The translations under genes were made by a program, and so were the position numbers. This document shows, in pieces, positions 14,173 through 60,948 of a DNA stretch of 64,000 bases; position 1 is the stretch's first letter, and every line of letters begins with the position of its first letter. This DNA comes from a virus (Duplodnaviria; Caudoviricetes): IMG/VR virus record IMGVR_UViG_3300021387_000573, positions 1-64,000 of that record; one strand, 5' to 3'. Below the pieces are notes generated by a model. It searched no databases, had not been told where the DNA came from, and saw only the letters and a list, made by a program, of their open reading frames with translations.

Positions 14173-14481
14173 TCACCTCTTTGCAATCATCTTCGCAAAC
14201 TTTTTCTCATACAATCTCATCTCAAACATAGCTCTATCAATTAACGTCTGATACTTATTTCTGATTTCGTTTGCTTCAAGTATTGCAGATCCGTATTCTT
14301 GTTCAATAGCAGACAATCTACAGATTGCCTCGTCGCATTCTTTCGATATATTTTCAATCTGCTTTTTCAACAGATTATTTTCTTTGGACAAAGAAGCGTT
14401 TTCGGATGTCAACTCAGCAATTGTTTCGGTTAGCCGTTCAATCTTTTGCCTTTGAATCCGAGCCATTCTTTCATCAATCAT
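14173..14481 (-). CDS. Coiled-coil hypothetical protein
   Basis: 102-aa ORF with RBS, heptad pattern. Confidence 0.55.
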   Translation of the reverse strand: MIDERMARIQRQKIERLTETIAELTSENASLSKENNLLKKQIENISKECDEAICRLSAIEQEYGSAILEANEIRNKYQTLIDRAMFEMRLYEKKFAKMIAKR

Positions 14482-14506
14482 TTCTCCATCCCCAAATAAA
14501 GATAGG

Positions 14507-14531
14507 GGAGGGCAGATATAATCTGCCCTCC
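14507..14531 (-). terminator. Hairpin after TMP, possible terminator
   Basis: GGAGGGCAGAT/ATCTGCCCTCC inverted repeat; weak U-tract. Confidence 0.5.
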
Positions 14532-14536
14532 TGAAC

Positions 14537-17500
14537 TTAATTTCTAACGTTTACCTTGTACTTACCCATAGAATTTCCGCCGAACATGGCGTCTTCTGCA
14601 ATGGCTTTGATAATTCTTTCTGCGTTCTTGTCTCTTTGCAATTGAGCAATGAAATCGTTATAGTCGCTTACGCGCTCAATTGAAATATTGACTTCGACGT
14701 TATCGATTCCACCAGACAACGCCCGCTGATTGATACCGCCGTTAACACGTCCAAACATCCGGGACATATCTCTTAACGCAGAAAGCGTTGGTGTAGTGCT
14801 AATACCTGCCCAATTAACTCCGCGCACAGAGTTGATAGCAGCCAGCAAGTTTTCAGTATCGGACGAATCCAATACCAGTTCGGGCTTGCTCGGAGTGCCG
14901 TCAACCTTTGCAATACCGGTATAATCAATGAGGCCACCGGTTTTATACTGCTTCACAGACATGCCGCTCGCAGCGACCATCGCCTGCACATTCGCAAGTA
15001 TTGCGCTGATCACCTGCCCGATAGACGTAAGCTTCGTATCAATACTGCCACCGTACTTAGAAACGATGGAGAACGTGCCGCTACTTCCATCCCAGACTGA
15101 ACGCATCTCATCCGTTGGTGTGTACCCAACGCCTGCGCTTATTCTTTCTATGGTTTGGCAAATAGCATCGGAACTTGCGTTTGTGGCACCAATTAAATCA
15201 TCAATTAAGGCGTCTATGTCATCGAGTCGGCTATTAACAGTTTCCTCATAGTCAGAATACAAATCCTCCATCAGTTTCTTTTGTTCGCTAATATAGTGTT
15301 CATATTCCGTTTCCTGCAAAGACTCTTCAGCTTCTTTTAACTGTTTCTGGAGCTTTTGTACTCTGGATCTGCTTTCCTCAGAAGAATCATTCGTATAGGC
15401 GGCGAGCTGCTTCTGAATATCTGCAATAGTAGAAGTCTGCTTAGAAACCTTTTTCTGATAATCGTAGAGGTCTTTTGCGCTATCCAACGATTTGGTATAT
15501 GCATCAATTAAATCGCGCATTGCCTCCACTTGCTTCTCGATACCCTGCTTCGCGAGATCAGCCGCAGCTCTTTTCTCGTTGTTGGCCTCGGTGATCGACT
15601 GTTGCTGTAAGTCCAATAATTGCTCTCTACGAGCTATCAAGTCCTTGTTCCACGGATCTTTTTGAAGCTCTCCTTCAATTCTCTTGAGTTCTTCGGCGTA
15701 CTGATCCGCCTGAGCCATATAAGTATTATAATTCTGAAGGCGGAGACCAACTGACGTAATACCTTCATCGGTGAATGAGCCGTCGTCATTGAACAATTTG
15801 GAATCTTCTAACAAACCAATAAGAAATTCAGACTCTTCGGTCAACCTGGAAATACGGTCAATTGCGTAATCAAAGTTTTCCCAATTGATTTCTCTGATGG
15901 TTTTTGCGAATTCGATGAGTTGTAATTCCGATTCGCTTATTGCTTCTTTTACGCCATCTATCTCGGAGCGCATCTCGTACCAAGATTTAGAACCTTCTTC
16001 GATCTCGCCTGATTTCATCGCCTGTTCATAATACTTTTGCAGCTCTGCCAGTTCAGATTTCAGCATAGAAAGATTCTTTGACTCTATATCTGCCAAAGAG
16101 GAATAGGCTTTCGCAGATCTCAAATAGCCAGAAGCTTCAAGCTTGTCAATTTCGGCATTAAGCATGTTTGCTTCGTGCTCAATTTGCGAAATCTTGTTCT
16201 CGAAATCTTCTTGTACGGCATCGAAATTTCCGCGATACAAATCACCGAGGCTTTCATGAAGATCATCAACCGCACTCGCGCAATCCAAAGATTTCTCATA
16301 CCACTGCTTATATTCGTTTATGAGCTTTGCGGTTTCCTCGTCGTACTCCGAGATGTCAACGGTTCCTTCACGGACGAGTTTCGCCAAATCATCGCTTAAA
16401 CCAACAGACTCAGCTTCTTTCATGTATCTGTCTGCGGCCTTTTGCTGAAGCTCAATTTCTTTGGTTATCTCCGATATCGCATCTTTAGAAGAAGACAGCC
16501 TCTTGCCGAGACTTTTGAATGTACTATCTATCGTTTTCTTGAATTTGCTAATAGTACGCTCAATCCGATCAATAGCAACTTCGATCCAGTCGATTTTTTG
16601 CTTCTTATCAGAAGCAGAAGAACCTCCGCCGGAACCACCACCAGAACCGGGGCCGCCTCCTAACCCAGAACCAATATCAACATCTTGAAGTGTATCAATT
16701 GGCTTAATCTTTGGCTTCTTTTTATCTTGCTTTGTATAGATTTGTGGATAAGGAAGACTCAAATTCCAGCCGCATGCAACACAATTTGCCATAGTCTCCG
16801 GGTTCATCGTGTTACATTTTGGACATCTTATATGCTTTGGATATTGTTTGCGCCCGCCATCTATGGTTACTAAACTTTTGCTCGGACCTGTCCCAATGGC
16901 GGCAGAACCAAACTTTTTAACCTTGTGCCCATTCCGTTTGGCATCTGCTGTGACATCGGCGGGGAGAACAATGTCGCCAGGTTTAAGATCAACTAACGCC
17001 GGTTTGCCATCATTGAATTCTTTGGCTACGCCGTCCTGGATTACGGTTTCTGGACCAAGTTCATTAACATACGCTTTCCCTCTTGGAGCATTTGTCGTGC
17101 CGCCAGCAAAATGTCCGCCTCTACCGGAAAAGCCGCCGCCGGAATGGGAACTACTGCCGGCTGCAGCGGCTCCCTGAAGTTCGCCATTAGTCGTAACATT
17201 TCCTACAATGTCAACTTCATAAGGGCTTCCTGCAAGCAGAGCATCTAATCTCGACTTAAACCCGTCAATAGCGCTCTCGGCCCCGGAAGCATCGGCGGTT
17301 ACTTCTACACCAGAACCCTTATCGTTTAGTTCGTCAATTCCTTTAGTCGCTTCATTGATCCACTGGTATAGATCCTGCATACCCGTAGTATCGATCATGC
17401 CAGCGGATTCAAGGCTCTTCAGAGCCCCTTGTATATCCCAATAATCAAGCCCATCACCGGCAAGTGACTCGATGATCTGCGGGATTTTCTCGGAATTTTT

Positions 17501-20500
17501 CTTTACTTCGCCCGGGATAAGATCAAGCTTATCCACTAGTTCTCCCATGTCCTCGCCGCTCATCATGGCCTGAACGCCAAGAACATCCAATGCGTCGAGC
17601 AAAGCGATAACAGATGCCTCACTCATTTTTGTAGCTTCCGCAAGAGCGGAGACTGACTTATACGCAAACTGGACATTACCAGCCGCGTCAGCCGTAACCT
17701 TAACCGCATCTCCAAGTTCAGAAGCGTGCTCCTGCAAGTAGCTTACAAAATTAGTCGCATAATCATCAGATGCGAAAACGGCTTCCCAAATACCAGAAGA
17801 AAGCAGTTCGCCAACTTTATCAAGCCCGTAATTGTTCTGCGCCAAGAAATCGCGGTTAAAGAATAAGTCTGCTGCGGCTCGCATCTCATAGGTATCGGTT
17901 TTGCCAGCCTTATAGGATTCAACGGCAGACTGATAAGCTTTCGCCATTTCTGCCGCAGCGTCACCCTTTTCACCGCCTTCAAGCGCCTTCTTATAGTCTT
18001 CGAGAGCCTTTGATGTTACAGTTAATTCATCGCGGAAAGAAACGAGATCATTTATCTGTGCCGACGTTGATTGTTCAGTAGCATTCGCCATGTCGCGTGA
18101 CATGCGCTCAAAATAGATCGCCGCATCCTCTGCGGAATAACCCATTTCAGTAAGACACTGAGCCAATCTGCGGCTTTGATCTTCTGTAAGCTTACCGTCT
18201 TTTAGAAAAGTGTTGACAACATCATCTGCGTCGTCGCCGATTTGTTTGAGACCCTTCTTAAAATTATCGAACGTCTTTTCAGAATCTTTAATACCAAGAG
18301 TCGCCGCAATAGTGCCCAGCAAAGAATCTACTGTTGCTATAGATTCTTTATCTGTCAGATCACCACGCAAACCGACAAGAAAATCCTGAAAAACCGAGAG
18401 CGTTTCCCGTTGCTTGTTGAGGTCGTCTTCTGCTTTAACAAGTTCTTTGTGAAGCCCGTCAAGCGTCTCTTCGTCAGCGTTGTCGAGTTTTGCATCTGTG
18501 ATAGCTTTATTTACAGCGTCAAGTTTTTCACTGGCTGTAGTGTAATCGCTTATTGCGTTGAGGAGTCCACCGAGGCCGGAGCTATTGCGTTCGAGCTCGC
18601 CAATGCCGTCTAAACGCTCTTGCCATGCGTTATCTGTAAAAGACTTGAGCGCTTTTGCGGCATCACTGTTTGCTTTTTCTGTTACCCTGTCCTGCTTATA
18701 TTTTGCAATCTCTTTTAGCAGTTCGAGTTGCCTCTCATACTGATTGTTTTGGCTCTCAAGATTGTCAAGCTCCTCCTGCTCAGTGCTGCTGAGTTCGCCG
18801 GAATCTTTGAGTGCGTTCAGTTCGTCGATGCGCTTCTGAGTTTCATCGACCTTTGACTGCATTTCATCAAACTCTTGCTTTGCTGCTTCGGCATCTTTTT
18901 GAAGCATTTCGAGAGTCGGGTGAGCTTCTCTATAGGCTTTGATGCCAATGGCGACAGCGCCTATGGCGGCACCGATACCGATGATCCATGGAAGGGCAAC
19001 ACCGATAGAGGCTCCAACAGCATCAAAAGAAAGAGCTAATTTGATTTGGTCTTCGGTCAGCCCCTTCGCTGCCAATGAGGCAGCAAGATATTTGGGACTT
19101 AGCAACATTGCTTCATCACCAAGCGAACGCAGGGCAGTCACGGCTACTCCGAGATCTTTAAGTCGCATTTATTAATTGACTGAAGACTGCATTCATAGTA
19201 TAATTTCAACGAGGTGATAAAAATGGGAAAACCAAATTTTTCCATTGAGCAAGTTGCGATTCATTGCCCAAATTGCGGAAATGAAGAAGGGAAAAGGTTC
19301 TTCACATCCGGGGTTGGCGGGAGTTTTGAAGAAACAACCTGCACAAAATGTGGAAGCATTATATCTCAGAATAATAACATTACAAATCCAGCATTCGACG
19401 CAGTTATGAATCCGAAATCAACTGTCACTTGCCCCTTCTGCCAATCTACCAACTGCAAGAAAATCAGTGGTGCTTCTAAGATCGGGAAGGTAGCGCTGTT
19501 TGGTGTGTTTGCTGCTGGGTCTGTTTCTAAAACTTGGCATTGTAATAACTGCGGCAGCAATTTCGGATAATAGGAGTTGTCAATAAATGACATCGGTGCT
19601 ATAATTTCAGTGCATATCGCTCCCCTCAAGTCAGAGAATTAGTAGGATGATGAACGGCGTCTGAACATTCTCGGACGAGAAGGGAGGTGGGATATGGTTG
19701 AATCGGTGTTGTTAAGCGCCTTAGTAGACCTCCTCGTTGGTATCATTTTGATCGCCATCGAGCGTCTCACTGAAAATTAAATAGCGGTGTGCCAGGGACT
19801 GTGTGCAGCAGTCCCTGTTTTTTATTTTGAAAAAGCATTGACATACTACAATAATTGTAGTATTATTGTAGTGAAAGGAGGGGCGTATGAACGATAAGGC
19901 ACTAAATATCAAAATACCAGCAGAGTTATATAATCAGCTTAAAGAAGAAGCGGCGAAAAAGAATATTTCATTGGCTTCGCTTGTCAGGCTGATATGCTCT
20001 GAGTATTTTGAGAACAAATGAAAAAGCTCCGCAACGTGTGAATAGCTTGGCGGCATCCACGTCACAGAGCTCCCGACCGAAGGAGATCGGTCTGTAAATC
20101 TATCCTACTACAAATCGGTCTCCTTGTCAAACATCAATGATTTGTAAGGAGATTTTATGGAAGACGCAAAAGAATATACGTTTACCAGAAATGCAGAAGG
20201 GACCATCATTATCAATGAGAAATGGCCGCCGGTAGACATCGCGCCTGCGACTTCTCTGAGCCGTGCCTCCTTGTTTGCTCTGAATTGGGCAACCGGAGGC
20301 TGCGCTGGGCAACTCGACACCGAAGACATTTTCTCGTTTCTTGATCCTGTTATTCATGGATCTTATCATGGGGTGCCGGATGGATTTGTAAATTCACCAG
20401 ACCTCAATACGGCGCTTATGGTATTTGAACATAAGCCCTCAGAAGTGGAGCTGCGCACCAAGGCGGATCAGGTCTTCACGTTCATTGATACATATAGACA

Positions 20501-23500
20501 CAGCATTCTCACAAGCAAGATGATTCTCAGCGCCACCGAAAAGAGGGAGGCGGTAGCATGAATCAGTCCATTCAGACTTTTGCCAACGAAGAGTTCGGAA
20601 GCATCCGCACCATCATGATCGATAACGAGCCGTGGTTCATTGGAAAAGAGATAGCAACCATTCTTGGGTATGCCAACACAAAGGATGCTCTTGTCAGGCT
20701 TGTTGATGCGCATGATAAAACAGTAGCTCTAAGGTCGCAATTCCCGACCTTAGAAAATATCCCGAATCGCGGGTTGACAATCATCAACGAGTCCGGCCTT
20801 TACAGCCTCATCCTCTCCAGCAAACTCCCGTCTGCCCGAAAGTTCCAGCGTTGGGTGACTTCCGAAGTCCTTCCGACAATCCGTAAGACAGGAGCATACA
20901 TGACGCCGGAAACGCTCAAAGAATCTCTGCGTGATCCCGAATACCTGCGCGGTGTTCTCTCGCTTCTGGACGAGCAGTACGAGAAGAACAAGAAACTGTC
21001 TACCGATCTCGCTGTCGCCAACGAGAGAAACAAAAGTCTCACCACGGCGAATAAGGCGCTGACAGGAGAGATCTGCGAATGGGACTGGCGAGCCTGCATC
21101 AACAGCCTGGTCAGAGCATATGGCAGTTATCGTCTCGGCGGCAACTTCGTCATGGCCTGGAATACTTATTACAAGCATTTCAACAATAAACTCGGCACCA
21201 ATATCCGGAATCGGAAGCCGTGCGGAAAGAGGATTCTGGATAGGGTAGAGCAGAACGAGTGGAAAGACGCTGTGAGAATCGCTGCGGGATTGTGTGAACA
21301 AGCCGATATCGACATCGGGAATGTCTTGAATAACATAAATCTTAGCATCTATATCGATGCCACAGTATAATGATAGTATAAGAGGGGTCGGACTTCCGGC
21401 CTCTTTTTTTTTATTAAATTGTATTGCACATTCGGACATGCATTAACAGCGAATGAAATATGGTTTTCATCCGCTGTGAGAGATTCTGCCCTGCGAACAT
21501 CTCCGCCATAAGATCCTTTATCCCGGCATCGGTTGCCCGATTGCTTCCACCGGATTATATGGATCGACAGGGGAGTCCCTGCTGACGGGTTAGCTGCGCG
21601 TTGCCCATTGTCGTGTCCGGTAGGCGTTATTGTTTAGACTTGGACATCCCACTCCCGCGTGCCACGGTTTGACTTATTTGCCTCGTCGGCTGCCATATAG
21701 GCGTAGTGAGCGTTAGGGGTTCGCGCAATTTACTCTCTTTTTATTTTAGAACCTTCATCCTATGGACTTGTTCACGCAACCATTACTGCGCGTTCTTGCC
21801 CATAGTAGGCCAGCTTAAAGATCTCGGAATTAAGCGTGCCCTCAAGGGGCCGACCGAAGTTCTGTATTAGTGCGGCGATCCCTGCAATACCACCAGCGGC
21901 AAGAAGCGTGCCGCCAGGGCCAAGGAAGCCCGTGATTTTTTCTAAGACATCTGCAAAAGCGGTTAAACCGTCAATTGCGTTACCGATGCCTTCGCGTGGG
22001 AAGAGGTTTTGCCAGATCCCGACGCCAGTTTCTTTCAGCGCGTTGAGCTTGTATTCGAGAGAGTCCATGATGATGGACATCTCTTTATCTGCGTTGCCTG
22101 CGCTGGTTTCCATCTTTGCCATTGCATCTTCAGCGGCGCTGAAGTTGGACAAGATGGCCATACCAATCTGGGCGCGGTTCTTACCAAATAGTTTCTCAAG
22201 CAGGCCAGCCTGTTCCTTGTCGGTAAGTTCGTCCCAGATTTCAGAAATGCGTTTCAGGATTTCGTAGGTGGATTTATAAGTGGTTGGGTTCTCCATTATG
22301 GAGACCTTGCCATGAGTGAGTTCGGAGATGTCGTTCTTGACGTTGCCAAGGGTCTCGTCAAATTCGCCTGTCTCCTCATCCAACATTCTGTTGCTTTTGT
22401 GACCATGATCACATGGCGGGCAGTCGTTTCTGGCTACCTCTCGCGTTTCATATTTACTGGATTATAGCGCGAGTTCGGACTGTATATTACTCTCGCCTTT
22501 AGGCAGGGAGAACGAACTTCAGCACATCTGTTACCAAATGCACCCCGCAGTCTCTGAGGATTCTACTGTTTTGCATATAAAAAATACTCCTGTATAACAG
22601 GAGCTAAAATCTCATCTATTTTATCAAAATCATAATACGGGATTCGTATTAGTTTAATATTGTTTGACTTACAATAATCGGTCTTAATAGCGTCTTTTAT
22701 CTTATTCTTTTCAAACTGTTGCTCTGCCCACTCTTTCCCTTTGCCAGCAAAATCTACCGGGAAGAAGTGCTGTTGCCCATCGAATTCAATAATCGTATTG
22801 GATAATGGAATAAAGAAATCAAACTTGAGCGGTTGCTGATAGACGCATCCATCAAATGTCTTCTGCGGTTTATACTGTATTTTATTCTTTTTCAAAACCA
22901 CAGCTATGCGATCCTCGCCCTTGCTAAACACGCACGACGGGCATCCGGAGCCTTGGTATAAGCTTGCTGGAGTTGTAAACCAAGTGTCTCCACACTTTGC
23001 ACACCTACACTCAATCTTTGATTCCCAGCCAGAGTATTCCCCAATTATCTGAGTAAATGGGGAACGATCTTTTATTTGTAGAGCGAAATCCTCGGTAGTT
23101 TTATTTTTACCAGCACAGTATGAGCACCCATAGGCGCAGTTCTTAAAATGGTCCCAAGCCATAGATTGCTCACCTTTTCCTCTGTGTTCAGGACAGATGA
23201 ATTTTACGATAGAGCCAGTCCTATCATGGCGCAAATATCTTCCAACATATTCAAGACCGAGACTGTTACATCGATCAATTACGGTGTCTTCATCAACCAT
23301 TTTCACCGATTTCTCCATCGTGCAATAATGGCAATGCCTACCAGCATTGACAACATTGTTAAGCGTTCTTTGCTGAACACCGTACTCTGCATGCAAATCG
23401 CAAATGAAATCTAATTTATCATGCATACCAGAATATGTTTCGCTCACCAGATGAAAATGTGGAAAATTGATATTTAAGTACGTTTTGATGTTTTCAACAG

Positions 23501-24859
23501 CATATGGATTCCGTTCAATCCAGCTCGGCTTTCTACCAGATAAATACCTGCTTTTGCAAATATTATATCTATACCCATCTGCATCATGTGCCGGTATTTT
23601 CGTAGACGATATGTATTGTTCAATCGTATAACCATCTTTTTCGAGCAGAGCAAGGAATTCATCTTTTGTCAATCCTTGCACCTCATCATTATCATTTATG
23701 CAAAACAGTAATCTTTCCTAAGTCTCTGGATTCCAGTATCCATTTGACTTATATAGTTCGTTATCTATGCAATTTGTTGAGCGCAGCATAGTCTATGTAT
23801 TTCTACATAGTTGGGCATGGATTTCCTACCCCTAATGCGCATCGAAATCGTTCTTAATCCGTTGCCAACTCTGCTGGCATCCTGCGTTATTTCTGTGCCA
23901 GCCGTAATTAACGCAAGTGTTTGTTCAAACGAGTTGTTTGCCGCAGACATGGACGCCGAAGAAACTTGAAGTGCGTCGGCGAGATCTTTGTTCGACAGAG
24001 CAAAACTATTACCTAAGATGTTAATCTTAGACATAACTCCGTCAAGAACTTCATCGGTTGTAATGCCGAACGCCTTCATCGTCGAGACGAGAGATTCTTG
24101 TGCCGTCTCAGTTGACATACCCGGCGAGATCATTGCAAACTGCGAGCTCAGTCTCGCCATTAATGTTGCATCATGCTTCGAACCGTATCCAAGCCTAGAC
24201 CACGCGGCGGCTTGAGATATGATCTCTTTAGTGCTTACACCGAGCGCCTTAGCCTCTTTATTCGCATCACGATAAAAACTAACCAGATCCCCGTCCGACA
24301 TCGTGGTCGTCTTGCGAAGGTCAACCAAAGCAGTATCAAGTTCAATAACTGTATTAACACCGCTCTCTACTGCCCTTACAATTTTGCTGAGCACCTGATA
24401 TGCACTACCGAGCCCAACAGCCTGCAAAACCGTGTTTTTCAGAGATGCGGCAAAAGAGTTTACCGTCAGCCCTGCCGCTTTTGCCTCTGACTGAATCTTC
24501 GCAAACTCAAGCGCAAGTTGTCGATACCTATCTGTTGGCACATCACCAGCCTTGAGCTCTTTTTGCATCTGTTTCAGAACCGTACCAAACCTGTCTGCCG
24601 CTTTCGAGTTGTTATTCATCCAAGTCTGGATCTTATTAGAAAGCGTGACAGAGCGGATTTGTGTTAGTTCATTTTTATATTCACTTGTGCTTTTTGCGGC
24701 TTCCCTTGCGCCTTTCGCAATACCTTCAAATGGATTGCCTTTTGAAGATCTGTTACTATACGCAGACTCTATCTGTTTGATTATTCGTGCTACATCAGCA
24801 TCAACAGTAGAGTCATCAAGCCTTACTTTGATTAGTGCTTCCCAATTACCACCAGGCAT
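14537..24859 (-). CDS. Tape measure protein, three exons join(23828..24859, 21853..22383, 14537..19165), 2063 aa if spliced
   Basis: TMP core (ELDTALVDLRK, VGNGLRTISMRIRG|LDEETGEF, KSTYEIL) and long coiled coils; both junctions in frame (IRG|LDE, NFG|RLK). Confidence 0.85.
19176..19204 (+). promoter_or_regulatory. SigA-type promoter
   Basis: TTGACT-17-TATAAT. Confidence 0.8.
19223..19570 (+). CDS. Double zinc-ribbon protein with hydrophobic segment (moron-like)
   Basis: CPNC..CTKC and CPFC..CNNC; GAGGTG RBS; own promoter. Confidence 0.75.
   Translation: MGKPNFSIEQVAIHCPNCGNEEGKRFFTSGVGGSFEETTCTKCGSIISQNNNITNPAFDAVMNPKSTVTCPFCQSTNCKKISGASKIGKVALFGVFAAGSVSKTWHCNNCGSNFG
19577..19605 (+). promoter_or_regulatory. 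SigA-type promoter
   Basis: TTGTCA-17-TATAAT. Confidence 0.7.
19694..19780 (+). CDS. 28-aa hydrophobic peptide, type I toxin-like
   Basis: MVESVLLSALVDLLVGIILIAIERLTEN; GGAGGT RBS, promoter and terminator. Confidence 0.65.
   Translation: MVESVLLSALVDLLVGIILIAIERLTEN
19793..19823 (+). terminator. Rho-independent terminator
   Basis: CAGGGACTG..CAGTCCCTG followed by T-run. Confidence 0.75.
19838..19872 (+). promoter_or_regulatory. Promoter with palindromic operator
   Basis: TTGACA-17-TATTAT overlapping TACTACAAT-A-ATTGTAGTA. Confidence 0.75.
19887..20021 (+). CDS. Ribbon-helix-helix (Arc/CopG-like) regulator, 44 aa
   Basis: MNDKALNIKIPAELYNQLKEEAAKKNISLASLVRLICSEY; AAGGAGG RBS. Confidence 0.8.
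   Translation: MNDKALNIKIPAELYNQLKEEAAKKNISLASLVRLICSEYFENK
20157..20561 (+). CDS. Hypothetical protein
   Basis: AAGGAG RBS; stop overlaps start of BRO gene. Confidence 0.65.
   Translation: MEDAKEYTFTRNAEGTIIINEKWPPVDIAPATSLSRASLFALNWATGGCAGQLDTEDIFSFLDPVIHGSYHGVPDGFVNSPDLNTALMVFEHKPSEVELRTKADQVFTFIDTYRHSILTSKMILSATEKREAVA
20558..21370 (+). CDS. BRO-N domain antirepressor-like protein
   Basis: FGSIRT..EPWFIGKEIA..LGY; INESGLYSLILSSKLPSARKFQRWVTSEVLPTIRKTGAY. Confidence 0.9.
   Translation: MNQSIQTFANEEFGSIRTIMIDNEPWFIGKEIATILGYANTKDALVRLVDAHDKTVALRSQFPTLENIPNRGLTIINESGLYSLILSSKLPSARKFQRWVTSEVLPTIRKTGAYMTPETLKESLRDPEYLRGVLSLLDEQYEKNKKLSTDLAVANERNKSLTTANKALTGEICEWDWRACINSLVRAYGSYRLGGNFVMAWNTYYKHFNNKLGTNIRNRKPCGKRILDRVEQNEWKDAVRIAAGLCEQADIDIGNVLNNINLSIYIDATV
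21381..21412 (+). terminator. Rho-independent terminator of the cargo operon
   Basis: AGAGG..GTCGGA/TCCGGCCTCT followed by long T-run. Confidence 0.75.
22384..23827 (-). mobile_element. Group I intron 1 of TMP with endonuclease ORF
   Basis: P1 GGGU/GCCC with U.G; P3 AACGAACU/AGUUCGUU; P7 GACUG/CAGUC; terminal G; P10 AUCCA/UGGAU; ORF looped out by 13-bp inverted repeat TACTGTTTTGCAT. Confidence 0.9.
22563..23681 (-). CDS. Intron-encoded homing endonuclease (Zn-ribbon repeats plus Vsr/DUF559-like nuclease)
   Basis: SKGE..FDFFIP..IIEFDGQQH..D..K..LIRIPY. Confidence 0.8.
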   Translation of the reverse strand: MQGLTKDEFLALLEKDGYTIEQYISSTKIPAHDADGYRYNICKSRYLSGRKPSWIERNPYAVENIKTYLNINFPHFHLVSETYSGMHDKLDFICDLHAEYGVQQRTLNNVVNAGRHCHYCTMEKSVKMVDEDTVIDRCNSLGLEYVGRYLRHDRTGSIVKFICPEHRGKGEQSMAWDHFKNCAYGCSYCAGKNKTTEDFALQIKDRSPFTQIIGEYSGWESKIECRCAKCGDTWFTTPASLYQGSGCPSCVFSKGEDRIAVVLKKNKIQYKPQKTFDGCVYQQPLKFDFFIPLSNTIIEFDGQQHFFPVDFAGKGKEWAEQQFEKNKIKDAIKTDYCKSNNIKLIRIPYYDFDKIDEILAPVIQEYFLYAKQ

Positions 24860-24932
24860 TTATCTCCCTCCTCTCAAAGATTCGGTCAATAAAAAATTCG
24901 CCATCCAAGGCGAACAAATAAAACTATTCATT

Positions 24933-25973
24933 TTACAGATCCTCCAATGAGGTCTGCTTAACAGACTTGATGCCGTCCGCTCCAAAATACTTTTCTAACT
25001 GGGAATCATTTGAGCGGTCATCATAAAGTCTAAGCATTTCTGCGCTAGACCAGCCAGAGATCATTTGGACAACAGCCTCTGGGAGATTAGCTTCGAGCAT
25101 AGATGTCGTCCAGAAATGCCGAACGCTGTGGAAATAAAATGGCTTGTTGAGCATTCGCGAGAAAGTTTCTGCAAGCGAGTTCATCATTGGAACACCTATA
25201 TGCTCATTTGAATCCCTTGAATCAGGGAATAACCACTCGCTTTCAATGCCAAGTCTTTCTCTTTCCTGCATCCACATATCGAAGTATGGCTTAAATGGTT
25301 TCGCAAGCACATAGACATCGAGAAGTTTGCCTCTCTGTCCACGCCCTTTTGTCACCATCTTTTCTGGCGTCTTATATAACGCTCCTCCACAAATCAAGTT
25401 TTTATCATCAAAGTAAGAAACCTTGAATCGAGTTAGTTCTACTTTGCGTTTGCCGCTATACATCGCCAAGGCCAATACGCACGCCTTCATATATTGTTTT
25501 TCCTCGACAAGATGATCAAGCAACGATTTCAGTTCTTCGTCTTTGAAGACTGTTTTAATGCGGACTTCTTCATTAACCGGAGACTCAATCTTATTCCAAA
25601 TTGCTCTATAATCTGGGAACTCGTCATCAAGCATATTCTCGATATAGTTTTCGAGTGACCGCGCCGTAGCCTTCACAGTACGCATTCTTCGAGGAGACCA
25701 TCCCCATACATTCAAAGCGTAGTTCTGAAACTTCGTGATCTCGCGTTTCGTGAAATCCACAAACGCCTTATTCTTGTTGAATTCTAAGCTCCAGCACCAG
25801 ATGATATGTAAATTGCTTGTATATTGCCGGATCGTATTCTTCGCCTTATCCGTTGCTTCCAGATATTCAAGGAAGTCTTTCTCAAGTTCCAAGTTATCCG
25901 GGTTTACCTGCTTCATTTTCTCTTCGGACGTTATCTCGTTATAGACAGTAGAACGCCCTTCAACTTTTCCCAA
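24933..25973 (-). CDS. Tyrosine recombinase
   Basis: SGKRKVEL, HSVRH, SGW, terminal Tyr (RLYD). Confidence 0.85.
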   Translation of the reverse strand: MGKVEGRSTVYNEITSEEKMKQVNPDNLELEKDFLEYLEATDKAKNTIRQYTSNLHIIWCWSLEFNKNKAFVDFTKREITKFQNYALNVWGWSPRRMRTVKATARSLENYIENMLDDEFPDYRAIWNKIESPVNEEVRIKTVFKDEELKSLLDHLVEEKQYMKACVLALAMYSGKRKVELTRFKVSYFDDKNLICGGALYKTPEKMVTKGRGQRGKLLDVYVLAKPFKPYFDMWMQERERLGIESEWLFPDSRDSNEHIGVPMMNSLAETFSRMLNKPFYFHSVRHFWTTSMLEANLPEAVVQMISGWSSAEMLRLYDDRSNDSQLEKYFGADGIKSVKQTSLEDL

Positions 25974-25988
25974 TCACAATCACTTCCT

Positions 25989-26387
25989 TTACTTAATTGC
26001 CGCTTCGATTACAGCAGAAGCATCTCTAATGATATTGTTCATAGCGCGATCAAAATCCAGTGGCCCACCGACAACGCCTGCGCCATGGTTCTCTGCCCAA
26101 CCAAGCACAGTTCCCATTCCGGGCTTGCTGCCAGTCGAGTACCCTCCGCTTGTATCCAAATATGCTTTGAATTCAACGCTATTTGATCCTGCTTTTACAC
26201 CATCAGTTTTTGGAGTATTAGCAAGTTGTCCAGTACGAACATACTTCTTTGGCTCGCCAGACCCATAAAACCTGCCTGTTTCCTCGTACAAATCTCCAAG
26301 AGCCAGTTGCTCCGCACTTTTCATTGCGTTAGTCAGGCTCCTCATAAGCATTTGTCTGAGCTGCGCAGAGCTTGTTGCAGTAGGCAT
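25989..26387 (-). CDS. Tail completion / neck protein (HK97 gp10-like)
   Basis: Y..P..YVRTGQL motif; synteny. Confidence 0.5.
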   Translation of the reverse strand: MPTATSSAQLRQMLMRSLTNAMKSAEQLALGDLYEETGRFYGSGEPKKYVRTGQLANTPKTDGVKAGSNSVEFKAYLDTSGGYSTGSKPGMGTVLGWAENHGAGVVGGPLDFDRAMNNIIRDASAVIEAAIK

Positions 26388-26393
26388 ATTACA

Positions 26394-26879
26394 TCACTCT
26401 TTCTTCAAAGCTTGTTCAACAAAACTGATAACCTTATCGCCGTCAGCGCCAACGATCTCATTAAAACGATTCGATTCACCGAAGATCTTCGCCATATTAT
26501 CGGGCGTGAAATACTGTTCAATAAACTTGCTGATAATGTTTACGCCACGGATAAGAGAGCTTCTGCGGTCTGACACAATCTGCATGGCATCAGAATATGC
26601 GTTGCTAAAATTCAAGCAGGGGAGAGCGTATCCATCAAGCGCATCACGGTAAGCGCAAATAAAATCGTCGTTACCAAATACAGTGTCGAGCGCAGACAGG
26701 TCATCTTCAGTAGTCTTGCGCTCTGCGTCTTTTGCATAAAAGTTCTCATAAAAAATCTGCATTGCATGAAGTCTGCCGGCATGAGGAATGTAACTACCAT
26801 CCTCAGCAATAAAACCAGCAGCAATATCTTCGACCAGATTGATATATTCAACCACGCCAACTTTAGTATCAATTCTCAT
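26394..26879 (-). CDS. Hypothetical protein (possible tail chaperone)
   Basis: ORF with GGAGG RBS in tail module. Confidence 0.5.
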   Translation of the reverse strand: MRIDTKVGVVEYINLVEDIAAGFIAEDGSYIPHAGRLHAMQIFYENFYAKDAERKTTEDDLSALDTVFGNDDFICAYRDALDGYALPCLNFSNAYSDAMQIVSDRRSSLIRGVNIISKFIEQYFTPDNMAKIFGESNRFNEIVGADGDKVISFVEQALKKE

Positions 26880-26926
26880 TTCTCTACCTTCCTCCAAACT
26901 CAATAAAATCAGTTTTCTATCTGTTA

Positions 26927-27076
26927 TTATTTTCTACTTGTTGAACCTGTGATTATTGCCAAAAACGCAGCTCCAATTACAACAAGGAACACTGGCAACA
27001 CAAGCCATGCTTCTGGGCCGTATAGAAACGCTCTCCAACCAAGAGCAGATATCTCACTTATAAGATCGTGCCACAT
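26927..27076 (-). CDS. 49-aa membrane protein
   Basis: MWHDLISEISALGWRAFLYGPEAWLVLPVFLVVIGAAFLAIITGSTSRK; AGGAGAGGT RBS. Confidence 0.6.
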   Translation of the reverse strand: MWHDLISEISALGWRAFLYGPEAWLVLPVFLVVIGAAFLAIITGSTSRK

Positions 27077-27091
27077 ATGCACCTCTCCTTG

Positions 27092-27622
27092 TTACGCCGC
27101 CGGCCTTTCGCCTAAAACACTCAGCAATGCATCCATATCATATCTATAATTTGACTTTAGTTTCCTTTGCGGAATCACAAAGTATTGGATATCATAGTCA
27201 TCCAGATCTTTAAGATTAAAGCTCTTCTTACCAACACAATCCATTAGTCTGTTGAACGCTTCAATCTCAATAAAGATCGTCAACTCCAGCTCGCGGAATT
27301 CGATAATAAATCCGCAAGTCATGCCATCATATTTATTCCAAACATTAAGCCCTTTAATCTGATGATAATGAATTTCTCCCTTATCATCTTCTGTGCGCTC
27401 AAAAGAAATAGACTTTCCGGACACTGTCTTTAGTTCAAAAGCATAAGGTTTGTGCCGTTTGGAATCCCAGACAAAATAATCAAATGGATTCTTCAAACTA
27501 AACCTAAGATTATCGGATCGACCGAATGATTGAGCAGAATCCGAAAGCCTATGTACGAGTGCATAGTCCGGAGCAGACTTCGCCCACTGGATCTCAAAAT
27601 TTTTTCCGGTGGATATCGCCAT
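27092..27622 (-). CDS. recU: Holliday junction resolvase, RecU-like
   Basis: GKNFE, PFDY, FELKT, IHYHQI motifs. Confidence 0.75.
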   Translation of the reverse strand: MAISTGKNFEIQWAKSAPDYALVHRLSDSAQSFGRSDNLRFSLKNPFDYFVWDSKRHKPYAFELKTVSGKSISFERTEDDKGEIHYHQIKGLNVWNKYDGMTCGFIIEFRELELTIFIEIEAFNRLMDCVGKKSFNLKDLDDYDIQYFVIPQRKLKSNYRYDMDALLSVLGERPAA

Positions 27623-27624
27623 AA

Positions 27625-27858
27625 TCAGTCCTTCTTCGGCGCACTCTCGCACCACTTTCGGTAAACATAGGCCGTCTCGCCTTTAAGGAACCAAGCGGTA
27701 ATCTTACCCGGTTTCAGTTCGTTCTCAAATACGAACTTTGGCTGACAGCCATGGCTGGTATAAAAAATAACCTGACGTAGATTATCAATCGGTATCAGGT
27801 TCTCTCGGCCATAGCACTCAATAGCCTCTTCCAAACTCTCAAAACTAATCGTTCTCAT
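27625..27858 (-). CDS. Small hypothetical protein (DUF5659-like)
   Basis: Resembles 34005..34193 and 40588..40833. Confidence 0.5.
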   Translation of the reverse strand: MRTISFESLEEAIECYGRENLIPIDNLRQVIFYTSHGCQPKFVFENELKPGKITAWFLKGETAYVYRKWCESAPKKD

Positions 27859-27941
27859 TCTTTCTCCAAATCGCAAAATTTTAGGGAGATAACAGGTTCT
27901 CAATAGTCTGTCTCTCCCTAAAACAAACTACGATACCCATG

Positions 27942-28181
27942 TCATTCTTCTTTCGACTCAGACTGTTCGTCCGATACAACAGGTGTTTTCTTCTTGCGAG
28001 TTTTCGTCTTTTTCTCAACCGGCTCGCTATAATTATCGGGAACCACAGTGTAGTGCCCGTCATCCTTGACCTTGACGACAGTGGCTTTTCTTCCAATTGC
28101 TGGGATCTGAACCTGAATGTCGTCATACTGAATTACAGTAACTGCTTCGTTATTGAGCAGAACCTTGCATTCTTTCAGCAT
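27942..28181 (-). CDS. Hypothetical protein
   Basis: AAGGAG RBS; basic C-terminus. Confidence 0.6.
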   Translation of the reverse strand: MLKECKVLLNNEAVTVIQYDDIQVQIPAIGRKATVVKVKDDGHYTVVPDNYSEPVEKKTKTRKKKTPVVSDEQSESKEE

Positions 28182-29469
28182 TTAAATTCTCCTTGGATAT
28201 GAAAAAGCCGCCAACAACTTTGTCCGGCGACTCAGATTTTGCTTTATTGAATTCCTCGCGAGTTACGAACTGGAACTTGTAGCCTTTATATCTACTGCCA
28301 CGATTTATCGATTTCCTAACCGCACGTTGGCTACATTTTCCAACTACGCCTTCTAACCAGTCAGTTGCATCGTTAGCGGATCTGAAATACATTGATACAT
28401 CTTCACAAAATAGCGGTTTTGCACCATGCTCTATGGCATTACTTAAATCTAATTTTTCTCTGTCTTCCAGAATGGTGTATGTGCACCAACCAAATTTAGC
28501 ACCAGTCTGAATATATCCAAGAGCAGTTTTATATGAAATCCGAAAAATTTTCGCAATCTCTTTAATCGTCATGAAGCCATGCGAATTTTTGTAATCACAA
28601 ATCATTTTGGCAAAGTTTGATGTTGCGAATGAATCACATAAAACCCAATTAATATCGCTAACCATCTTATCAAGCACATCAAGAAGCCCAGATGATACAA
28701 TATTATTTTTGATATAATCACAATCAGACTCGCTAGAATCTATAGCAAAGTAATAATCAATGCCATTTTCTTTCGCGATATCTCTCTTAAATATATCATT
28801 TTGCTTCTCTTCATCCAGAGTTCTGTACATGCCACCAACATGAACTGGCCTGGAATAGTGTTGTTTTCCATGCATCTCTACAATTATTTTTTTACCATGA
28901 TGCTCGATATACTCGTCATAGAACCTTCCACAAGACCAGTCAAATTTCATTTCTGGATGGAAATCAACACCGCATTGCTCCAAAACAGAATATATGAATT
29001 TATTCGGATAACTTTGACCGTCAGAACATAAACAACTTAAACCATGATTGCTCATCACCTGATGAATCTGTTTGTGATGTATTCGACCGCAATCAGGGCA
29101 TTTCATATCAACATATTTCTTGCTATACTTTGTATTTGTATATACGTCATTTTGATCAACGAAATAAACCATCATCCATGGTGCCGTCGTCGAAATGTCA
29201 TTCACACCTTTGACTATTTTGCTGGGAGAAACACAACAAGCGTTACATCCGCAAGGACGTTTCGATATAAGCGCATCTTCTCTCACCCAATCTTCGTTGC
29301 CACAATCAAGGCATCTATACAAATACCACTTTTCATTTTGTGTATATGACTTGCCGCGTTTTAATTTTTCTTTTGACCTATATTCTCTTTGAATAATGAT
29401 CAAATTTCTATCGTGTGACGAAATTTGGTCTCCAATGTCACACTTAAATTCTCCGAACATCTTCCCCAT
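28150..29469 (-). CDS. Free-standing homing endonuclease-like protein
   Basis: Zn ribbons; SYPNK..YD..IIVEMHGKQHY; C-terminal HTH/NUMOD-like region. Confidence 0.75.
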   Translation of the reverse strand: MGKMFGEFKCDIGDQISSHDRNLIIIQREYRSKEKLKRGKSYTQNEKWYLYRCLDCGNEDWVREDALISKRPCGCNACCVSPSKIVKGVNDISTTAPWMMVYFVDQNDVYTNTKYSKKYVDMKCPDCGRIHHKQIHQVMSNHGLSCLCSDGQSYPNKFIYSVLEQCGVDFHPEMKFDWSCGRFYDEYIEHHGKKIIVEMHGKQHYSRPVHVGGMYRTLDEEKQNDIFKRDIAKENGIDYYFAIDSSESDCDYIKNNIVSSGLLDVLDKMVSDINWVLCDSFATSNFAKMICDYKNSHGFMTIKEIAKIFRISYKTALGYIQTGAKFGWCTYTILEDREKLDLSNAIEHGAKPLFCEDVSMYFRSANDATDWLEGVVGKCSQRAVRKSINRGSRYKGYKFQFVTREEFNKAKSESPDKVVGGFFISKENLNAERMQGSAQ

Positions 29470-29498
29470 ATCTCGCCACCTCTTTTCTAATTAAAACA

Positions 29499-29522
29499 AG
29501 GGGCGGAGATTTCTCCGCCCCC
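29499..29522 (-). terminator. Terminator after tail tube gene
   Basis: GGGGCGGAGA/TCTCCGCCCC hairpin followed by TTGTTTT. Confidence 0.7.
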
Positions 29523-29533
29523 CCAAATAGTTT

Positions 29534-30633
29534 TTATTCAGCGTCTTCCTCGACCATATCGAGAATATTGCCGTCCTTGTCTTCCATAAGATCAACCATA
29601 TGTTCCACCGAGGTCGCTACTCTCGATGAGCGCACAAAGCGCATCTCTATGTTTCCATAAAGTGCAGACTATATCTTCATCTTTTAAGATGCCCACCACA
29701 GTCCTCTGCTTAGAGGCACTTAGTCGTTGAACCTTCTCCTGTTCGGAGCTTGGCTGCTGATTATCCATTAAAAAGCGTTTAGGATTTAACCATGCGCTAT
29801 CTACATATTTTCTTTCTACTTTCGTAACCATCACGCTTGAGCATGTTTCATCTCTACGTTGTGGTATATGTAGCTTTAGGATTTTCCAGCAATTCAATGG
29901 GTTATTTATCATACACGTCTCCGTATACGGACGCTGCTTATCTTATCAACGTCGCAGTAACCGTCGCAGGATCACCTTCGGAGCTGAAGGACAGTTCCCA
30001 AGTGCGCTGGATGGAAGCCTTATAGGCAGTGATCTTAAAGGGAGCGAACGCGCCCTCCTCGTCCTTGTCCAGAGTGCTCATGGTGATGAAGTAATCCTTC
30101 GGCATCTTCTTGTTGTTGAAGGAAATCTTCTTCACGCCGCTCTTGACCAGCAGGTAGCCAATCTCATACTCGCTGCCAACCGCAATGTCAGAAGCCGTAG
30201 TTGCGGTAAACACGTTACCAGCGAATGTACCGGCAATCGCGGCATCCTCGTCGCCGTACTGACCAGCGGGATACGCGAACACAAAACCAGTCTGAATGGT
30301 GTTGCCGTCGCCAGGAACCAGGGTGATCTTACCAGCCTCGGTAGCCTTAATCTTCTCGTGCATAGCGATGGTGGCAGAATTGTCGATGGTGCCATCGGAA
30401 AACAGAGAGAAGAACTTAAAGGTGTAGACCTGCGCCTCGACACTCAGCGTACCGGTGATGGGGTTGGGGAAGGCAATGCGACGAGCGCCCTTAGCCATAG
30501 CGTAGACGGAATCGCCTTCGAGGCCAACAGTGGTGGTATTGGCAGTCTCAAAGAACAGATATGGAGCCATAGTCTTCAGGATGCGAATATCGAGATCACA
30601 TACCTGGCGGTTGGCTTTATTCAGTTCAGGCAT
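29534..30633 (-). CDS. Major tail tube protein, two exons join(29949..30633, 29534..29595), 248 aa
   Basis: Splicing gives ...SSEGDPATVTAT-F-DLMEDKDGNILDMVEEDAE; high-expression codon bias. Confidence 0.85.
29596..29948 (-). mobile_element. ORF-less group I intron (353 nt) in tail tube gene
   Basis: P AAUUGCUGGAAA, Q AAUCAGCAGC, R UCAACGACUA, S AAGAUAUAGUCU; P1 ACGU/GCGU; terminal G. Confidence 0.93.
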
Positions 30634-30669
30634 ATTTTTATCCTCCTAAATAAAGAATGAAGACCAACC

Positions 30670-31479
30670 TTATGGCTGGCCTTTTTTAGTGTCATATTCG
30701 TTTTTGTACCAAGCATCGGGTTTGAACGTTTTCTTTTCATCGCCCCATACAGACACCCTCGTCTTATCAATCTCATAGAAAGCATCGTTTCTCAGCCTAT
30801 CAAATGAATCCATTACCTGATAGATCGTAAGTTTTCCGATGTTTGTATAATTGATAGATGGATGCCTTGTGGCAACGGCAGAAATAATATTCGGCAGAGT
30901 CAGATTGGGATCGTGCTTCCCATTCTTTTTCTGATCTCTTTTAGCCCGTTGCATTTTTTCATATAGTTTTCGTGCCTTCTCATTCTTGAATTTAATCTGC
31001 GAAGGATCAATCTCTTCTTCATCAGCTTCCATGCCGCAAACCTGTTTCAAGATATTGAGAACCTGTGGAAACAAAGGCTCGGTGATAGCGCCACGGATAT
31101 CATCTTTTGATAAATCTCCGTGCGGATCAACGCCTTTGTTCAATATAATAAAAAAGCCATGCTCGTACAGAACAGGCTCTTCGATAAAAAATCGAAACAA
31201 CTCCATGTATATTTCACGCAAAGACTCATCCGCTTCTATAGCAGAAAACAGCGTCATAGAATCCCTTTCCTCGTCGGATAAAGATTCCCACAGCTTCTTG
31301 CCAGCCTCTACGTTAATCTTTGTGAAATACAACTCCGGAGTCATCGAAAGAAAACTCTCATAGAACGCGAGCGTGTCAAATCCGATATCCCAAATCATAT
31401 CAATCGTCGGCTTCCTGATAGTGCAAATAGATAATCGGATCGGGAGCGGACTCGTCATAGTGCCGTAATCAAGTCTCAT
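30670..31479 (-). CDS. Conserved tail-module protein
   Basis: ORF between tail terminator and tube. Confidence 0.55.
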   Translation of the reverse strand: MRLDYGTMTSPLPIRLSICTIRKPTIDMIWDIGFDTLAFYESFLSMTPELYFTKINVEAGKKLWESLSDEERDSMTLFSAIEADESLREIYMELFRFFIEEPVLYEHGFFIILNKGVDPHGDLSKDDIRGAITEPLFPQVLNILKQVCGMEADEEEIDPSQIKFKNEKARKLYEKMQRAKRDQKKNGKHDPNLTLPNIISAVATRHPSINYTNIGKLTIYQVMDSFDRLRNDAFYEIDKTRVSVWGDEKKTFKPDAWYKNEYDTKKGQP

Positions 31480-48170: not shown

Positions 48171-48247
48171 TGGTTGCGGAGGTTGGACTTGAACCAACGA
48201 CCTTCAGCTTATGAGGCTGACGAGCTTCCAACTGCTACTACTCCGCA
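48171..48247 (-). tRNA. tRNA-Met (CAT), initiator-like body, encoded CCA
   Basis: TGCGGAG/CTCCGCA acceptor stem, TCAGC-CTCATAA-GCTGA, TTCAAGT T-loop. Confidence 0.9.
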
Positions 48248-48486
48248 GAATATAAAAAAGACCCGACGTGGTACGCATCGTTGAGAGGCGTGTCGGGTTC
48301 TATGTTATAATTAGAGCACGTCCGGCACAGCACAAGCCATGCCGGTAGCTCCAGAGAAGAGAAAGATAGAGAAATGAGAACAGGTATATTTTATACTATA
48401 TACCATAATACTAAAAATTTTTGAAGGACTTGAAACCCGCATAAACACTTGTTTTTTTTGATGTTTTTAACTTTTAATTGCTGCGT

Positions 48487-59575: not shown

Positions 59576-59669
59576 TTGATCGTCAGAGCGATCTAAAACA
59601 GTCCATTAAGCTCTGAGCGTGGGGCTTATGCCCCGGTTGGAAAAATACATAATATGGGGAGGAAAAGTC

Positions 59670-60865: not shown

Positions 60866-60948
60866 TTTCATAATGCAGAGCACACCGGAAAATCCGGTGT
60901 AATGCAGCCGAAGACCGTTGCAAGCCGGTTGTACTGGAAAATATGAAT
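60866..60948 (+). ncRNA. Twister ribozyme (circularly permuted, P5-type)
   Basis: P2' UGCA-GA-GCA, P1 CACCGG/CCGGUG, U^AA, P2 UGCA-GC, P4 ACCG/CGGU with loop UUGCAAGC. Confidence 0.8.

Follow-up and report, generated by a model that had tools for sequence, protein, structure and literature searches.

A putative cargo-carrying group I intron with a distant 3′ splice site in the tape measure gene of a phage

The tape measure protein (TMP) gene of the phage deposited in IMG/VR as IMGVR_UViG_3300021387_000573 lies on the minus strand in three pieces, and the second of the two gaps between them is filled by 2687 nucleotides (nt) that very probably form a functional, splicing group I intron laden with cargo genes. 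The DNA analyzed, referred to below as the window, comprises the initial 64 kb of this 124,755-base virus record. The anatomy of the element, the covariation of its helices, its conservation, the variability of its cargo and the absence of other start codons from some relatives were all observed, and together they argue that it is spliced. An earlier reading made from the letters of the window alone, called here the original prediction, had proposed such an intron as a self-splicing harbor for accessory genes.

How precisely is the gene interrupted? The last codons of exon 2 are ...CAG AAC TTC GGT, up to U21853; G19166 closes the insert (...AAAUG), and the frame continues from C19165 with exon 3 (CGA CTT AAA GAT CTC GGA). 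These are exactly the borders originally predicted, with QNFG/RLKDLG in frame across the junction. Approximately 350 database homologues of the middle TMP piece were found, and the long uninterrupted ones (P0007, P0011, P0012, P0016, P0024, P0026, and others) align continuously over both gaps. At the second gap, P0026 reads LKAFKTLSDVG against the IQNFG/RLKDLG of the joined window protein. Both gaps are thus precise insertions between codons. The three pieces sum to 2063 amino acids (aa), the length anticipated for the joined protein, of which the homologues are uninterrupted counterparts. It had also been foreseen that gene callers would report two TMP genes, and so they do: P0001-P0003 and others end in a 27-aa read-through tail, P0121-P0133 are C-terminal pieces, and public protein sets hold TMP as truncated N-terminal pieces with such tails and headless C-terminal ones.

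The ribozyme core occupies the beginning of the insert, the first 445 nt of which blastn and nhmmer recovered, at identities of 57-99%, from 19 distinct loci. Each of these copies sits after the same TMP codons (..AAC TTC GGT, ..TTC GAT, or ..TTC GCT). Its helices were written by hand, with peripheral hairpins taken from RNAalifold, and pairs were counted on a MAFFT alignment of the 19 distinct homologues. Standard pairs fill 91.7% of the cells, as against 35-47% when the partners are slid by 1-3 columns; both sides have changed in 59 of the 91 pairs, as against 12-21 in the slid controls; and the covariation score is 0.476, as against 0.08-0.14, with none of 500 shuffles reaching any of these measures. 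All catalytic helices from P1 to P8 lie within the first ~420 nt of the intron, and the P3-P8 and P4-P6 domains follow one another in the canonical order with a P3/P7 pseudoknot. The U.G wobble at the 5′ splice site (exon U against G43) is present in 19/19 sequences, and the P1 pair -2/44 covaries (AU 10, GC 5, GU 3, CG 1). P3 occurs as GAGAG/CUCUC, GAGGA/UCCUC, or AAGGA/UCCUU, and P4 as UGCGCG/CGCGCA or UGCUUG/CGAGCA. In P7, the G362-C419 pair that follows the bulge is invariant in the 19 sequences, while the closing (first) pair is GC in 12, CG in 5, and AU in 2. The core elements originally marked as P (21720-30), Q (21593-602), P7 (21487-93/21433-38), and P8 (21446-77) coincide with helices backed by covariation among the 19 homologues, and the P3 proposed with them is 100% paired with covariation. 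In every structural respect tested, this is a group I core, of a lineage unseen by Rfam's model.

Other assignments were tried and set aside. A first version of P1, pairing U-1 with G42, is broken by L008, L015, and L053, while U-1.G43 suits all sequences. A group II intron does not fit the ends, which are not GUGYG...AY, and an intein does not fit a frame that stops after 27 codons.

The second line of evidence comes from the 3′ splice site, which the original prediction had placed far from the core and which appears to be specified by a covarying guide helix of 17-20 base pairs (bp). Exon 3 nt +4 to +18 are the exact reverse complement of intron nt 24-38, 2.69 kb apart. Across loci this helix, P10, measures 17-20 bp and starts at exon position +1, paired to G42, beside the G43 of P1; P1 and P10 thus adjoin on one guide in the canonical layout. 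The mismatch in the window is A+3 opposite C40. When up to 6 kb are scanned, the best complement of the guide lies directly after the G where the TMP frame restarts in the window, L001, L003, L004, L005, L053, L071, L072, and L207. An anchored scan gives the same junction in 11 loci, adding L015 and L125, and ranks that of L193 second to a decoy; its 12 loci show 16-21 of 22 P10 pairs, with compensatory changes at seven positions. The covarying exon 3 positions are partly synonymous: where the leucine codon is CUC, CUG, or CUU, the guide has G, C, or A, respectively. Covariation that includes synonymous positions implies selection on the RNA pairing of the 5′ end of the intron with the start of exon 3, and such a pairing is sensible only if the exons get joined. 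The intron of L193 also contains, at nt 833, an 18/20 complement of its guide that is preceded by a G but opens no reading frame, while the true junction (nt 1348) reaches 17/20. This internal complement could be a decoy or else a 3′ splice site left behind when cargo was gained.

Relatives of the intron share its core and differ in what they carry. Some relatives are found in the genomes of Enterocloster lavalensis (L162), [Clostridium] asparagiforme (L141), and Hungatella hathewayi (L207). Insert lengths begin at a basal 826-950 nt and then run through 1348, 1587, 1595, 1712, and 2687 nt (window) to 3594 nt (L001). L001 and L002 are from two independent assemblies, in which exons 1 and 2 are 100% identical to those of the window and the core 99% identical, around an insert of 3594 nt vs. 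2687. Their cargo comprises related BRO and hypothetical genes (84% identity) and extra small open reading frames (ORFs). A survey of relatives for the same core with different cargo, suggested with the original prediction, has therefore found it in this pair. The extra 1.84 kb of the window (the peptide unit plus the operon of ribbon-helix-helix, hypothetical, and BRO genes) falls exactly between the core and the stop codon of the Zn-ribbon gene, and the core itself is 93% identical to that of the compact L005. A bovine-gut contig is a further cargo variant, and members of 1348-1712 nt have longer Zn-ribbon proteins or extra ORFs. The "variable island" foreseen inside the intron thus holds as far as different cargo beside the same core is concerned (3594 vs. 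2687 nt), but not for the Zn-ribbon gene, which is constant in every copy. Beside the BRO operon, both assemblies also contain 43 nt duplicated from the 3′ end of this gene (L001:5393-5435, L002:5271-5313), although the complete gene lies far away; the duplication resembles a scar left by recombination or by the insertion of cargo.

The Zn-ribbon protein is the faithful companion of the ribozyme. All eight of its cysteines are invariant and its C-terminal 45 aa nearly so, while its N-terminal half is variable. A second conserved block of the element (intron nt 2283-2429 and beyond) is in fact the 3′ half of this antisense gene. Only 25-30 nt separate it from the core in L003, L004, and L005, whose elements are therefore no longer than 866-881 nt. 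In all copies, a G+C-rich hairpin stands between the core and the stop codon of the Zn-ribbon gene; it is the terminator of the antisense gene on one strand and sits at the place of P9 in the intron RNA. In every compact relative it is found where the window has its BRO terminator. The C-terminal domain of the protein is found in at least 160 further Clostridia phage or prophage loci. Pfam, PHROGs, NCBIfam, PADLOC, and the ESM Atlas return only "hypothetical" or sub-threshold Zn-ribbon matches for the protein, among them weak ones to the Zn ribbons of IS1595-type transposases. The AlphaFold model is modest (pLDDT 68.5), its fold matches are generic Zn ribbons only, and a Foldseek search against the PDB gave nothing below E 0.1.

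A second intron family, similar to the window intron over its first ~150 nt, occupies the same TMP site in another set of contigs from gut phages (L077-L111, L169). There the guide pairs at 17-20 of 20 positions after the G where a frame of at least 1000 aa restarts (436 aa in L086, where the edge of the locus is reached). Lengths take 14 values from 2221 to 3865 nt, and the cargo of one such intron consists of genes for a Zn-ribbon-domain protein, an HTH_3 regulator, and a DUF3800 protein. Rfam detects nothing in this family; its core helices covary by eye.

In the window, the cargo genes lie on the plus strand and take up ~2.2 kb from the core to the 3′ end of the intron, the place expected of P9. 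The Zn-ribbon, hydrophobic peptide, ribbon-helix-helix, hypothetical, and BRO genes that had been predicted there could all be placed, as could the three promoters (19176, 19577, 19838; each matching 11/12) and the two strong terminator hairpins (19793-19817, 21380-21407), both kinds of signal being consensus matches only. None of the five cargo ORFs matches the nuclease families searched (LAGLIDADG, GIY-YIG, HNH, His-Cys, PD-(D/E)xK, EDxHD), nor does Pfam find TnpA, TnpB, or another insertion sequence (IS) transposase in the cargo beyond the sub-threshold Zn-ribbon matches. The unit around the 28-aa peptide resembles a type I toxin or small membrane protein, to which the intron RNA would be a natural antisense.

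The process can be pictured as follows. In the late TMP transcript, P1 (exon 2 GGU with G43-C45, including the U.G wobble) would set the 5′ cut, and the 19-bp P10 (nt 23-42 with the first 20 nt of exon 3) would bring the 3′ site, 2.69 kb off, to the core. G19166 would act as the terminal G, and ligation would yield QNFG-RLKDLG. The cargo genes would be expressed from their own promoters, probably at a different time from TMP.

Several observations weigh against this picture. The Infernal comparison with group I models proposed at the outset turned out negative: the Rfam model RF00028 finds nothing in 18800-22600 of the window at E≤10, nor in compact relatives at E≤1, nor in 20 Zn-ribbon loci, the scans having used gathering and E-value thresholds. 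Yet a different intron of the window, at 29645-29934, reaches 86.6 bits with this model. Its seed, however, lacks whole subgroups (PMC11878797). Since RF00028 is known to be incomplete, the structure was tested by comparison instead, and the silence of the model is weak evidence against a group I intron. Within the structure, P6 is only 46% paired in a poor alignment, and neither P9 nor P9.0 was identified beyond the terminator hairpin. An intron-less allele was sought with a degenerate pattern of the ligated junction, which gave three chance matches in viral contigs, none of them in TMP, and every one of the nearest relatives in exon 3 is split. RNA was represented by two metatranscriptomic runs of the sample (X5, X20), whose libraries may contain DNA and whose contigs were aligned to 14400-30800. 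Their contigs are short and sparse (2-4x), and none bridges either TMP junction, 21853/19165 included, so that they neither support nor refute splicing. Finally, convergent antisense transcription could interfere with splicing, and the exon 2 reading, which runs 27 codons into the intron and across the guide, could compete with folding.

Could the ribozyme have decayed, or become inefficient, in this particular copy? The record would then hold a non-functional TMP, even though relatives may still splice. The absence of spliced RNA from the sparse contigs would fit, as would the unusually large cargo (2687 nt vs. ~850 nt) and the A+3/C40 mismatch of P10. This is nevertheless quite unlikely: the core has stayed 99% identical to that of L001 and 93% to that of L005, P10 keeps 19 of its 20 pairs, all three exons are open, including 1542 aa past the junction, and the second family, seemingly built on the same logic, would span up to 3.9 kb.

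An even less likely explanation is that TMP is made as two polypeptides, an N-terminal piece with a 27-aa tail and a C-terminal piece started at the ATG at 19168, the conserved RNA serving some other purpose. An ATG does precede the junction in 8/13 relatives, and gene callers do predict two proteins, starting the C-terminal ones at MRLKDLG, MQLKDLG, or an internal methionine. However, there is no Shine-Dalgarno sequence before the junction in any of the 13 loci. In the window, as originally remarked of this apparent ATG without a ribosome-binding site, the 25 nt preceding 19168 contain no purine-rich Shine-Dalgarno, and the A/T-rich stretch found there is the reverse of the plus-strand promoter. 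In five of the 13 relatives (L003, L004, L005, L071, L072), no ATG, GTG, or TTG lies between the upstream in-frame stop and the junction, L005 even having a TAG directly before it, so that exon 3 can there be expressed only after splicing. The covariation of the guide with exon 3 would have no role without splicing, and the tail-length rulers of known phages are single chains. The ATG at 19168 is most naturally taken for the ..AUG with which these introns commonly end.

The least probable alternative is that the element is removed at the DNA level, as a transposon-like or recombinase-dependent unit with the Zn-ribbon protein as its mobility enzyme, for although the conserved Zn-ribbon gene always accompanies it and has those weak sub-threshold likenesses to the Zn ribbons of IS1595-type transposases, no recombinase, transposase, or nuclease domain appears in any library searched, the ends have no terminal repeats, DNA contigs of the same sample keep the insert (the joints listed include no skip of 19166-21852, whereas intron-less forms are seen for the other two introns), and a group I core with its U.G and terminal G accounts for the borders.

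The remaining features of the gene and of the record are listed with the intron in Table 1. The first TMP insert contains a 372-aa ORF (23681..22563) with a CapR-homology match and an endonuclease-like FDF..EFDGQQH motif, and an ORF-less form exists in the same sample, where a DNA contig of run X1 skips 22563-23712 (1148 nt). As an intron lying 531 nt upstream with an endonuclease-like ORF, it might co-convert the cargo intron. TMP homologues of L036, L037, L024, L026-L030, L040, and L054 have gaps at several other positions of the exon 1 and exon 2 regions, up to three of them in L036 and L037; the TMP gene family is an insertion hot spot. A blastn search of 18000-25000 against known phage records matched only BRO and endonuclease fragments. 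Elsewhere, intron-less alleles of the gene at 29645-29934 circulate, DNA contigs in two runs skipping 29594-29948, and the phage record is unusually rich in ribozymes.

Table 1. Positions of the tape measure exons, the proposed intron with its parts and cargo, and other features (window coordinates unless a locus is named)
Feature	Position	Strand	Remarks
TMP exon 1	24859..23828	-	344 aa; PhageMin_Tail domain
First TMP insert, 1444 nt	22384-23827	-	Exon end ..AGG GGU, insert end ..AAUG; homologues continuous across
TMP exon 2	21853..22383	-	177 aa
Whole predicted group I intron, 2687 nt, phase 0	19166..21852	-	Between codons G521 and R522 of joined TMP; uninterrupted homologues align over junction
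TMP exon 3	14537..19165	-	1542 aa + stop
Ribozyme core (module A), intron nt 1-445, P1-P8	21408..21852	-	66-99% conservation over 19 distinct loci
P1 5′ strand, last three exon 2 bases GGU	21853..21855	-	U21853 pairs with intron G43
P1a hairpin, nt 3-15, just inside 5′ splice site	21838..21850	-	Kept with altered sequence in L003, L008, L015, L053; MAFFT alignment poor here
Internal guide sequence: P10 strand nt 23-42 (to exon 3), P1 strand nt 43-45 (to exon 2)	21808..21830	-	P10 19/20 pairs in window
P2 (nt 48-55 with 86-93) and inner helix	21760..21805	-	95% and 92% paired; double changes in 11/13 pairs
P3 (nt 116-120 with 371-375), enclosing P4-P6 domain	21478..21737	-	100% paired; 3 covarying pairs
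P4, nt 126-131/253-258	within 21478..21737	-	86-100% paired, covarying
P5, nt 135-137/247-249	within 21478..21737	-	89.5% paired, covarying
P6, nt 265-269/347-351	within 21478..21737	-	Poorly aligned, 46% paired
P7 (nt 360, 362-366 with 415-420; A361 bulged), enclosing P3′ and P8	21433..21493	-	100% paired
P8	21446-21477	-	97.6% paired; 11/13 pairs covarying
P10 target strand, first 20 nt of exon 3	19146..19165	-	At least two Watson-Crick pair types in 7/20 columns; column 15 GC, AU, CG, UA
Intron terminal G (omega G)	19166..19166	-	G ends 13/13 relatives with mapped 3′ splice site
BRO-N antirepressor-like gene, 270 aa	20558..21370	+	PF02498 4e-26; PHROG anti-repressor Ant 1e-51
Hypothetical gene, 134 aa	20157..20561	+	No family in Pfam, PHROGs, NCBIfam, PADLOC; homologue in L001 cargo
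Ribbon-helix-helix (Arc/CopG-like) gene, 44 aa	19887-20021	+	Domain matches
Promoter match before ribbon-helix-helix gene	19838-19866	+	11/12 consensus
Small unit	19577..19817	+	Promoter match 19577-19605, peptide ORF, terminator 19793-19817
28-aa hydrophobic peptide ORF	19694-19780	+	GGGAGG ribosome site, read from sequence
Antisense Zn-ribbon gene, 115 aa, two CxxC..CxxC ribbons	19223-19570	+	Protein kept in every intron copy, 31-61% identity
Promoter match before Zn-ribbon gene	19176-19204	+	11/12 consensus
Intrinsic terminator of BRO operon	21380..21407	+	Same hairpin at P9 position of intron RNA, ~25 nt after P7
Second-family intron, example	L087:3180-6973	-	Same TMP site
Canonical group I intron	29645-29934	-	RF00028, 86.6 bits
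abiF RNA beside tRNA	48178-48297	-	Rfam, above gathering score
Pistol ribozyme	59578-59641	+	Rfam 60.3 bits, above gathering score
Type-P5 twister ribozyme	60874-60929	+	Rfam 48.1 bits, above gathering score

What might such introns be for? It is conceivable, though we put it forward only tentatively, that those of the TMP site form a dedicated gene-cassette platform, with the Zn-ribbon protein as its own maintenance or mobility factor of an undescribed kind. If so, a programmable guide of ~20 nt would make splicing independent of cargo length, and early or lysogeny accessory genes (the antirepressor operon, the toxin-like peptide, regulators, DUF3800) would be parked and exchanged inside an essential late gene, where they would be safe from loss by simple deletion. 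A group I ribozyme that chooses its 3′ splice site 0.8-3.9 kb off by means of a 17-20 bp guide would be an unusual solution. An essential structural gene would in this way become a safe location for oppositely transcribed accessory genes, linking intron biology to the traffic of morons and counter-defense genes, and a self-splicing cassette that tolerates cargo and has a programmable guide could serve for payload insertion into essential phage genes. Because Rfam misses the ribozyme, the lineage is invisible to standard pipelines.

How does this arrangement compare with known systems? The nrdD (sunY) intron of phage T4 is similar in having its ORF 3′ of a complete core, in the P9 region, with the 3′ splice site far downstream. 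It differs in that this is a single sense-strand homing-endonuclease ORF of ~0.8 kb, and the intron is not known to have a long P10. The group I intron of the fungal mitochondrial rnl gene likewise houses a non-endonuclease gene, rps3, but this is one host gene on the sense strand, which is fixed and does not vary. Group I introns of nuclear ribosomal DNA can carry homing endonuclease genes in antisense, and thus resemble the window intron in having a protein gene on the strand opposite the ribozyme (PMC9548176). These are nevertheless eukaryotic, with one His-Cys endonuclease, whereas the window has a phage intron with several non-nuclease genes and bacterial promoters. In IStrons such as CdISt1 and BcISt1, a group I ribozyme is fused to an IS200/IS605 element (PMC4227781). 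As in the window, their core is at the 5′ end and 1-2 kb of protein-coding cargo precedes the 3′ splice site; splicing neutralizes the insertion, as it would in the window (PMC4227781). Contrary to IStrons, the cargo of the window has no TnpA or TnpB by Pfam and is antisense with its own promoters and terminators, and the element is tied to one conserved site of one gene, not to many sites, with a 17-20 bp P10. As for the host gene, group I introns (TMP-IVS1-3) are described in prophage TMP genes of more than 1200 aa in the Bacillus cereus group, often several per gene (PMC2504315). The likeness is one of host gene and intron number, the window TMP having two inserts and its relatives up to three sites. 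In the literature searched, no phage group I intron was found described that carries several accessory genes in antisense under their own promoters, nor was such a long P10 or a conserved Zn-ribbon companion. While the kind of element is itself already known, what would be new here is a phage group I intron with several accessory genes in antisense, under promoters of their own.

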